Below, piece after piece: positions 17,618-19,127 of a stretch of 64,000 nt of DNA. Position 1 is the first letter of the stretch; each line of letters opens with the position of its first letter. The translations under genes were made by a program, and so were the position numbers. Source of the DNA: Escherichia coli (lineage in GTDB: Bacteria > Pseudomonadota > Gammaproteobacteria > Enterobacterales > Enterobacteriaceae); the NCBI RefSeq assembly GCF_013315695.1, contig NZ_CP054353.1; one strand, written 5' to 3'. The notes under the pieces were generated by a model. It was not told the DNA's origin. It was given only the letters and a program-made list of their open reading frames with translations, and searched no databases.

Positions 17618-17730
17618 CTATATTCATTCTTCCAGATTCCTTCCGGCAGAGCCTTATACTGAAATATACCTGGCTCAGGATATTGTTGAAAATATTATAT
17701 GTTTGTCAAAAATAAAAGTTCTGTTAAGTA

Positions 17731-18084
17731 TTGATTGAGTGTTTGTTATACGGTCTAATGGTTTTTTCAGCATTAAATATTTATCATTCATATGGTGTGG
17801 GTAGAGTGAATATTGATGAGGCGTCGGGGTGTTTCATCCTTAGGCAGCGTATTGATATAGTCAATGCAGCACGAGCAAAGGCCTTCAGCCGTTTGACAGT
17901 TTTGTTCTGTACTCCTGATCGTCTTTCGGGAAGAGACGTTATTATTCTGAATAGTGATGCTATTCAGAGGGTTTGCGATGAGTTCATGGTTGCTAATTCA
18001 GAATTATTTGCTCTTGTTCAGGAGTACAACAGAATAGCCAGGACCTGTGGTATGGATGAACTTCGGATTACTCATCTGGGGTAG
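17731..18084 (+). CDS. Hypothetical protein (117 aa from TTG; 108 aa from ATG 17758), low-GC cargo
   Basis: ORF track entry. I recognise no family. A hairpin ATCACTT..AAGTGAT plus a T run follows the stop. Confidence 0.4.
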   Translation: MIECLLYGLMVFSALNIYHSYGVGRVNIDEASGCFILRQRIDIVNAARAKAFSRLTVLFCTPDRLSGRDVIILNSDAIQRVCDEFMVANSELFALVQEYNRIARTCGMDELRITHLG

Positions 18085-18345
18085 ATACATATCTGGATTA
18101 TCACTTGTTACGGTAAAAAGTGATTGCTTACTGTTTTTGTGAGTGGCATTGCAGCAGCCGGATAATGTCAGTGCTGGCTGACGGTGTGCTGGTGGCGGGT
18201 GTGGTGGTTGTTGCTTTCCCGTTGCTGAAAAAGAAAACGCCAGACTGTTAGCCGGGTATCAGTTAGCGGGAGAAATTTTTAAATACTTCACAATTCAGGC
18301 GGTTGACTGTTGTCTGGTTTGCGGGGAGTTTGTTAAAAGAAACTG

Positions 18346-18505
18346 GCATGGTGAATCCCCCTGTGCGGAGGGGCAATCAGCGAGTAGGTATATGGGATAA
18401 TCGCGGATTCAGGTGCTGGTACTGAATTCACCGGGAGGCACCCGGCACCATGCAATGGCACATAGCGCCACTCTCCAGCCCCTCTCCGGAGGGGCTGTTT
18501 ATATT
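18346..18505 (+). ncRNA. GC-rich multi-hairpin element ending in an intrinsic terminator (candidate structured RNA)
   Basis: A closing helix GCATGGTG (18346-53) pairs with CACCATGC (18446-53). Inside it are three hairpins: 18358-73, 18405-29 and 18431-45. A terminator follows: CAGCCCCTC-TCCG-GAGGGGCTG plus TTTATATTGATTTT (18476-18505). Confidence 0.4.
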
Positions 18506-18531
18506 GATTTTGTCAGATGTGAGTAAACTCC

Positions 18532-18867
18532 TTATGGACTTTGTTGTTTTAGTCCATAAGGACATATTTGCAGAGTGCAACGGTTATTAAAGCATTCATT
18601 CAATACGTTATCTGTATTTGTAGGACATTCCTGGCTGTTTTTGATTAAATTCCAGAATGTTTTATTGAATGGTGCTACGTTGTAAATGGTTACAGGTAGC
18701 ACTTTGTTATTGAGCATGATACCTGTGTGAGTCAGTGTAAATATACTTTCAGGAGGTAAGAAAGCATCCGATTGATACCAGATTATTAATTTTATTTTAC
18801 TCCATATGACTGAAAAAGATATTCCGCATGATGGCTGGATAACTGTATCAATCACAATCCACTTCAT
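18532..18867 (-). CDS. Hypothetical Cys-rich protein, 111 aa, low-GC moron on the strand opposite to late transcription
   Basis: An AAGGAA RBS lies 5 nt upstream of the ATG, and the gene has its own sigma70-like promoter. I recognise no family. Confidence 0.6.
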
Positions 18868-18905
18868 TTAGTTTCCTTGTTTATGTCTTGCTGGTGATGT
18901 TCTGA

Positions 18906-18934
18906 AAAGTATAAATGATATTTTTGAATGTAAA
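18906..18934 (-). promoter_or_regulatory. Promoter of the 111-aa moron (TTTACA-N17-TACTTT)
   Basis: On the reverse strand the -35 lies at 18929-18934 and the -10 at 18906-18911. Confidence 0.5.
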
Positions 18935-19127
18935 CCATAGAGCAGAATTATTTTTCTGATGTTGTTTATTGTTTATTTAAATGCAGGGTGGTTTATATCT
19001 CGTCTTGTAGTTTATCCATGCATATCTGCTTGATGATGAGGTTTTTATTTAAGGTATGGTTTTGTGTTTTTTCTGTATTACATGTCAGGTATTTTAAAGA
19101 ATTATTTTTCAGATGGTGGAAAGAACC

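Follow-up and report, generated by a model that had tools for sequence, protein, structure and literature searches.

What takes the place of the Shiga toxin genes (stx) in a lambdoid prophage whose late region has the usual frame but carries no toxin? The question is raised by positions 17618-19127 of a 64,000-nt stretch of Escherichia coli DNA (contig NZ_CP054353.1 of assembly GCF_013315695.1; hereafter the window), between the late antiterminator gene Q with its following tRNA genes and the prophage sialate O-acetylesterase gene nanS-p. A preliminary description, made from the sequence alone, had treated this whole slot as one stx-equivalent unit filled with low-GC cargo of unknown function in four parts (a 117-aa open reading frame (ORF), a 28-codon hydrophobic mini-ORF, a multi-hairpin RNA element and a convergent 111-aa ORF), and had proposed it as a candidate lysogenic-conversion, defence or virulence module.

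In essence the locus is that of iraL as published for phi-potB-type prophages, beside a known small RNA (sRNA) family, and it is largely known already. The block is read here as an accessory segment in the late region of a phi-potB-type lambdoid prophage like that of CFT073, with two separate insertions around a backbone sRNA, and a probability of about 85% is given to this reading. The products that had gone unrecognised were identified as IraL (PMC4045071), the Rfam family STnc100, the Pfam family DUF3927 and the PHROG family phrog_2873, so the label of unknown function did not survive. By the database matches, iraL and DUF3927 are common annotated phage genes.

The minus-strand gene iraL

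The ORF at 18532-18867 (minus strand) encodes 111 aa, of which 110 are identical to IraL of the uropathogenic strain CFT073 (position 65 is alanine here and valine in CFT073). The ORF passed the cutoff of the IraM family in NCBIfam (NF007393, 162.4 bits against 121, residues 1-110), matched the IraM chain of PDB entry 8twd (E=2.2e-32) and was 63% identical to K-12 IraM over 107 aa; the published identity of IraL and IraM is 58.9% (PMC4045071). Judged by these matches, the gene is iraL, encoding an IraM-family RssB anti-adaptor, and the product is specifically IraL rather than IraM. In RefSeq genomes with identical DNA the ORF is labelled 'anti-adapter protein IraM'. IraL was described as an IraM paralogue of CFT073 (c1429), encoded in the potB island or prophage (Hryckowian et al., 2014; PMC4045071). 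It binds RssB, and in log phase it stabilises RpoS; RssB binding and a longer RpoS half-life were shown for both the CFT073 and the S. sonnei alleles, and its mode of interaction with RssB is reported to be distinct from that of other anti-adaptors (PMC4045071). In later work, iraL was up in a CFT073 fur mutant and on shift to 37°C.

The ORF had been described as convergent and self-promoted, and published transcript data agree with this. The 32 nt at the 5' end of iraL mRNA, obtained by 5'-RACE (rapid amplification of cDNA ends), aligned with minus-strand positions 18869-18900 and agreed in 30/32 nt (0 expected by chance; the match is exact in CFT073), and the transcription start site (TSS) was therefore placed at 18900. 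A -10 element, TATACT, was read from the sequence at 18908-18913, 7 nt upstream of the TSS, and the 5' untranslated region with the putative sigma-70 promoter was assigned to 18868-18940 (minus strand). Transcription of iraL would start at its own sigma-70 promoter and run opposite to late transcription, and IraL would therefore be made in the lysogen. Given 99% identity to the CFT073 protein, the window IraL is expected to bind the adaptor RssB, so that RpoS, the stress sigma factor, would not be delivered to ClpXP and would be stabilised in exponential growth. The gene would thus be a lysogenic-conversion gene that re-tunes the general stress response of the host. To this extent the proposed lysogenic conversion held for iraL, for which it was already known; the defence and virulence parts of that proposal found no PADLOC match and no toxin-like ORF.

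Several candidate control features of iraL were considered and rejected. For PhoP control, as known for iraM, box-like sites were counted across the window, with 14 observed and 13.9 expected. One such site, the PhoP-box-like direct repeat TGTTTATTGTTTATTTA at 18963-18979, has 1 mismatch and precedes the iraL TSS by 63-79 bp; it is a motif at chance level. For Fur control, the best Fur-box match in 18860-19130 reached 11/19, within background. The hairpin of the neighbouring RNA element is non-canonical as a bidirectional terminator for iraL, as the minus strand continues GAGAGUGG without a U-run.

The C-terminal tails of IraL and IraM share C81, C92, C97 and C102 (CX10CX4CX4C) and are otherwise poorly conserved. 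Residues 79-111 of IraL are encoded by 18532-18630, and the IraM-RssB structure was solved after removal of the corresponding IraM tail.

The STnc100 element between two proposed insertions

The multi-hairpin RNA element was assigned to the STnc100 family of prophage sRNAs, which is related to PasD. It occupies 18317-18506 (plus strand), with a terminator hairpin at 18476-18497, and matched RF02076 with 132.4 bits against a gathering score of 47, over model positions 1-206 (cmscan). In an alignment of 11 copies, compensatory changes were found in 10 of the 45 predicted pairs, both sides being changed with the pair kept. Copies of the family are carried by CFT073, 640R1, mEp460, STEC1585, 933W and PPwrbA_EH2201. 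The order in 933W is tRNAs (argO last), stxA, stxB, STnc100, AsxR on the minus strand and nanS-p, with STnc100 beginning 75 nt after stxB, and this order is consistent with PMC12370729. In the stx-less PPwrbA_EH2201, three tRNAs are followed by STnc100 and then by nanS-p, and the cargo is absent.

On this comparison of sequences, the STnc100 element is conserved phage backbone and not the replacement cargo that had been supposed, being carried by Stx phages as well. Only 17619-18316 is taken as stx-equivalent, because STnc100 belongs to the backbone and follows stxB in 933W; by the 933W order, the slot from the Q-associated tRNAs to nanS-p is not a single stx-equivalent unit. By the same alignment of gene orders, iraL holds the position equivalent to that of AsxR in 933W. 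AsxR lies there on the minus strand between STnc100 and nanS-p (2485-2537 of the 933W locus, L009), and no Rfam match to AsxR or AgvB was found in the slot of the window even at E<=1. The sub-site between STnc100 and nanS-p seems to collect antisense-oriented regulators that are expressed in the lysogen.

STnc100 has been related to the PasD sRNAs of enteropathogenic E. coli (EPEC), found by RIL-seq (ligation and sequencing of interacting RNAs) with Hfq, and has been located in the interval from Q to the sialate esterase gene (Zhu, Shabalina and Storz, bioRxiv 10.64898/2026.05.13.724894). It was also detected by reverse transcription quantitative PCR (RT-qPCR) in outer-membrane vesicles of Shiga toxin-producing E. 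coli (STEC), in other strains (PMC12370729). The element would be a structured sRNA of a family that many lambdoid and Stx phages carry immediately before nanS-p. Transcripts of the upstream cargo probably stop at the element's terminal hairpin, and the Q-modified polymerase would have to pass this hairpin to reach nanS-p and the lysis genes.

A promoter-like motif, TTGtCT-N18-TGtTAAAA (window 18310-18339), is nearly invariant upstream of the aligned copies (11/11). It would put a TSS by the GCAUGGUG stem, at about 18346, which is some 30 nt further in than the 5' limit of the Rfam model. In identical genomes, the Prokaryotic Genome Annotation Pipeline (PGAP) places a partial 'hypothetical protein' pseudogene at 18336-18461 (minus strand), wholly inside STnc100 and on the opposite strand, which is probably an annotation artefact.

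The same element could instead work in cis, as a transcript end or terminator and as a recombination linker for cargo cassettes, and not as a trans-acting sRNA. STnc100 copies always stand immediately 3' of plus-strand cargo, and two to four copies are present where several cargo genes are stacked (loci L002 and L008). Homology breakpoints between phages fall around and inside the element (at about 18152, 18272, 18454 and 18502), and the mEp460 copy is a hybrid with a different terminal hairpin; neither of the two studies cited above (10.64898/2026.05.13.724894, PMC12370729) demonstrates a function of STnc100. The related PasD sRNAs, however, are abundant in EPEC and are bound by Hfq with mRNA partners (10.64898/2026.05.13.724894), and compensatory changes in the internal helices would not be needed by a mere recombination site. 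A cis and a trans role can coexist. A purely cis-acting element is regarded as rather unlikely and is not favoured over a structured backbone sRNA.

STEC1585 has four copies of STnc100, which punctuate stacked cargo and of which three stand in tandem. This multi-copy arrangement suggests that cassettes were stacked by recombination at the element, and STnc100 may act as a recombination linker. Such multiple copies were mapped to 3075-3287, 5047-5242, 5306-5505 and 5567-5756 of L008 and to 3165-3358 and 3634-3822 of L002. The cargo that is punctuated by STnc100 copies includes a TolA-like gene, a methyltransferase remnant, a YdeO-like AraC gene and a homologue of the 117-aa ORF.

ORF117 and DUF3927 at the stx-equivalent position

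Every ORF of 25 aa or more in the region was listed. No stx-like ORF was found between the tRNAs and nanS-p, as the preliminary description had said, and the interval from argO to STnc100 contained no stxAB cargo (an A subunit of the ribosome-inactivating protein (RIP) family with a B-subunit ORF). Neither ORF at the stx-equivalent position matched a toxin family in Pfam. These two ORFs would encode a helical-hairpin protein of phrog_2873 (core about 92 aa) and a DUF3927 membrane peptide of 43 aa; expression of both probably comes from the late transcript of PR' or from a weak site at 17686-17713 that resembles a promoter.

ORF117 (17731-18084, plus strand, TTG start) belongs to phrog_2873 (E=3.8e-70, 233.9 bits, profile positions 1-108 on residues 10-117), a family of small, predicted helical phage proteins; a weak match to phrog_4827 was also obtained (E=4e-5), and there was no match in Pfam or NCBIfam. 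In a word-indexed search of 5.8 billion proteins, homologues fell into 17 clusters, with identities of at least 87% in nearly all of them and of 56% in two clusters of equal length. A profile search of 1.8 billion representatives in an unannotated library returned 22 relatives. Several of the remote homologues are 91-95 aa long with 32-40% identity and start near ORF117 residue 22-26, and one stands downstream of Q and a tRNA-Thr, in a different late region of lambdoid type. The family shares the motif ERAxAFSRLTVLFCTPDRxSG...AN.EL..LVQEYN.

An AlphaFold 2 (AF2) model of ORF117 is a two-helix hairpin (helices 28-60 and 75-106; mean predicted local distance difference test (pLDDT) score 70), preceded by 24 disordered residues with pLDDT <50. 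When the model was compared with the PDB by Foldseek, generic coiled-coil hairpins alone were returned, none at E<=0.001. A relationship to GapR/UPF0335, the best profile match among PDB sequences, was rejected as not significant (E=0.06), and no consistent Pfam match emerged from the family members.

It was considered whether ORF117 is a gene at all or a chance open frame in an AT-rich spacer. PGAP leaves the frame out in identical DNA and in all sampled genomes, the TTG start has no clear ribosome-binding site, and the missing Pfam and NCBIfam matches and the low pLDDT of the first 24 residues point the same way. Against a chance frame stands the comparison with the 56% homologue: at 65% nucleotide identity the frame stays open over 116 codons, the ratio of nonsynonymous to synonymous substitution rates (dN/dS) is 0.34, and changes at codon positions 1, 2 and 3 number 35, 33 and 54, with the third in excess. 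The 234-bit match to phrog_2873 and the 32-40% homologues, which are of similar length and keep the motif, also argue for coding. A chance frame is thus unlikely. On this pattern of substitution and conservation ORF117 is a real gene, and the part most likely to be spurious is the N-terminal extension alone (17731-17805). The conserved core is probably 17806-18084, about 92 aa from a GTG start.

The 56% homologue lies directly after a YdeO/GadX-like AraC regulator gene in STEC prophages, with STnc100 copies and nanS-p downstream. This prophage-borne regulator (241 aa; WP_062872184.1 in STEC1585; 3664-4389 of L008 and 164-889 of L007; NF007407, 121 bits, below the cutoff) occupies in STEC the equivalent cargo slot, immediately upstream of the ORF117 homologue.

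The second gene at this position (18120-18251, plus strand, GTG start) encodes a small membrane protein of 43 aa that matched DUF3927 (PF13064, 95.6 bits against a cutoff of 25, residues 2-43). In PHROG it belongs to phrog_1470, labelled 'TciB-like', and in PGAP it is WP_000562553.1, which is identical in CFT073. The 28-codon hydrophobic ORF noted previously (ATG at 18167, ending at 18251) is the C-terminal part of this ORF. All four parts of the preliminary description were found where it had placed them, the mini-ORF being the last 28 codons of DUF3927. A literature search on the function of DUF3927 or TciB returned nothing informative.

Prevalence and the separability of the parts

Prevalence was measured in 5426 complete E. 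coli genomes, the whole block being counted at a coverage of at least 80%. The whole block was present in 862 genomes, the ORF117 segment in 1185 and the iraL segment in 1445. The parts can be separated across genomes. Phage mEp460_ev081 carries ORF117, DUF3927 and STnc100 followed by different genes, without iraL, and vB_EcoS-640R1 carries STnc100 (two copies) and iraL without ORF117. Given these separations and the genome counts, the parts are taken as separable insertions that travel together in one prophage lineage.

A single co-selected module of ORF117, DUF3927, STnc100 and IraL, acting jointly for example on RpoS or stress regulation, would account for a block that is contiguous in 862 genomes when about 315 are expected under independence (1185 x 1445 / 5426), for an identical order of the parts in CFT073, and for the diverged ORF117 homologue that adjoins a YdeO/GadX-like stress regulator in STEC prophages. 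The clean separation in the two phages speaks against it, as do the at least 323 genomes with ORF117 and the at least 583 with iraL in which the full block is missing. Nearly all copies are at least 95% identical, so the excess co-occurrence is put down to one prophage lineage of recent common descent. One joint module is therefore judged improbable, and two separate insertions around STnc100 remain the preferred reading.

Defence genes are frequent in prophage accessory loci near lysis genes, and DUF3927 is a small membrane peptide whose PHROG family carries the label 'TciB-like ... resistance to colicin'. These points would suit an anti-phage defence or superinfection-exclusion module. No PADLOC-DB family was matched at E<=0.01 by any of the four proteins (ORF117, DUF3927, IraL and NanS-p), the largest gene of the block has another demonstrated function, as an RssB anti-adaptor, and the colicin label of phrog_1470 is an annotation and not a test. 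A defence role of the block is very improbable.

Some observations weigh against a phi-potB-type accessory segment with two insertions around a backbone sRNA. The U-tail of the window STnc100 is weak (CUGUUUAUAUUG), the fold z-score of its single sequence is -2.3, and a target or function of STnc100 is undemonstrated in the two studies cited above (10.64898/2026.05.13.724894, PMC12370729). ORF117 is unannotated by PGAP in all 1185 genomes that carry the segment, identical DNA included; its start is uncertain, the candidates being 17731, 17758 and 17806, and a good Shine-Dalgarno sequence is absent upstream of every candidate start. The activity of IraL is taken from a homologue with one residue changed (A65 here, V65 in CFT073). 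Finally, this reading gives phrog_2873 and DUF3927 no role.

In a second and doubtful reading, phrog_2873 and DUF3927 provide an unrecognised accessory function of the lambdoid late region and, separately, STnc100 copies serve as linkers for the exchange of cargo. The phrog_2873 protein could be a small regulatory partner or a host-takeover factor, in view of its stxAB position, its recurrence after Q and tRNAs and its AraC neighbour. The STnc100 linkers, for their part, would swap cargo such as stx, iraL, AraC regulators and TolA-like genes at the slot.

The locus has little discovery value, because the characterisation of iraL dates from 2014 and Rfam already has a curated family for the RNA. 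The layout of the phage region is clarified: iraL, usually assigned to the 'potB genomic island', belongs to the accessory region between Q, the tRNAs and nanS-p in a lambdoid prophage. With iraL at the AsxR position and beside STnc100, the late-region cargo site is a shared platform that carries toxin or host-stress regulators according to lineage. The modest interest that remains lies in phrog_2873 and DUF3927, both functionally blank families, at the exact position of stx; about one in five complete E. coli genomes carry phrog_2873, which PGAP leaves unannotated.

The frame of the region

The frame of Q, tRNAs, cargo and nanS-p was recovered as first described, by Pfam, ARAGORN, PGAP and a terminator scan. 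Q (16403-17224, plus strand; 273 aa with a DnaJ-like CxxC region) matched PF03589 Antiterm with 182 bits and is annotated by PGAP in identical DNA as 'antitermination protein'. A tR'-like intrinsic terminator was found by the terminator scan at 17305-17331 (plus strand; hairpin 17305-17324), with a stem of 7 bp followed by TTTTATTG; PR' is presumed to lie upstream of it, assigned by position alone.

The first tRNA (17368-17443, plus strand) has a CAU anticodon and is of the ileZ type, tRNA-Ile2 (ARAGORN; Rfam tRNA, 72.5 bits), named tRNA-Ile by PGAP. The following 100 nt (17444-17543, plus strand) align with argN, the tRNA-Arg(UCG) of CFT073 and 933W, with substitutions and indels, and gave no tRNA call by ARAGORN or Rfam; they are read as a decayed argN remnant, because they align with argN but have diverged and are not called. 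Phage mEp460_ev081 has a likewise decayed argN. The tRNA-Arg(UCU) at 17544-17618 (plus strand) is of the argO type (ARAGORN; Rfam, 68 bits).

On the far side of the block, nanS-p (19128-21089, plus strand) is full-length, encoding 658 aa with the domains DUF1737, SASA and DUF6645; PGAP annotates a 'SASA family carbohydrate esterase' with its start at 19128. The low GC content that had been ascribed to the slot was confirmed for the flanks of the RNA element, at 28-38% (17600-17900 and 18500-19100), but not for the hairpin element itself, which has 56%; the adjacent genes have 52-60%.

Further along the late region, a 297-aa ORF (22000-22893) directly follows a holin-like ORF (21729-21998), where YdfR or a lysozyme would be expected. 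Other Rfam matches in the window were the sok antitoxin RNA by hokD (13834-14005, plus strand), DicF (6262-6313, minus strand) and rseX (58113-58203, minus strand), and the left end of the window carries a tRNA-Asn (680-755) and a tRNA-Ser(CGA) (1747-1836).

Comparison with known systems

Among the closest known systems is the potB prophage of CFT073, with which the window is colinear at 96.9% DNA identity over 17326-19285. Q, tRNAs, ORF117, DUF3927, STnc100, iraL and DUF1737/nanS-p are common to both, and the annotated order in CFT073 is Q, tRNAs, DUF3927, an IraM-family gene and DUF1737. In CFT073 an IS200C separates Q from the tRNAs, argN is intact and nanS-p is truncated, whereas the window has no IS200C at that place, a decayed argN and a full-length nanS-p of 658 aa.

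K-12 IraM (b1160; PDB 8twd, with RssB; PMC10844676) aligns gap-free with IraL over its N-terminal beta-barrel core (residues 1-78), and the four C-terminal cysteines are conserved between K-12 IraM and the window IraL. The two genes differ in context and in control: iraM adjoins prophage e14 in K-12 and is induced by Mg2+ starvation, whereas iraL stands in the other context described here and is active in log phase.

With 933W the window shares the backbone order of Q, PR' and terminators, ileZ-argN-argO, cargo, STnc100, a minus-strand regulator, nanS-p and holin. Before STnc100, 933W carries stxAB as cargo and the window ORF117 with DUF3927; the minus-strand element after STnc100 is the 53-nt anti-sRNA AsxR in 933W and the protein gene iraL in the window. 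The Q proteins of the two are of different types. Compared with RF02076, the window STnc100 is about 16 nt short in the variable central region, and its U-tail is weaker than that of most copies; it is placed like PasD/STnc100, downstream of Q and upstream of the sialate esterase gene.

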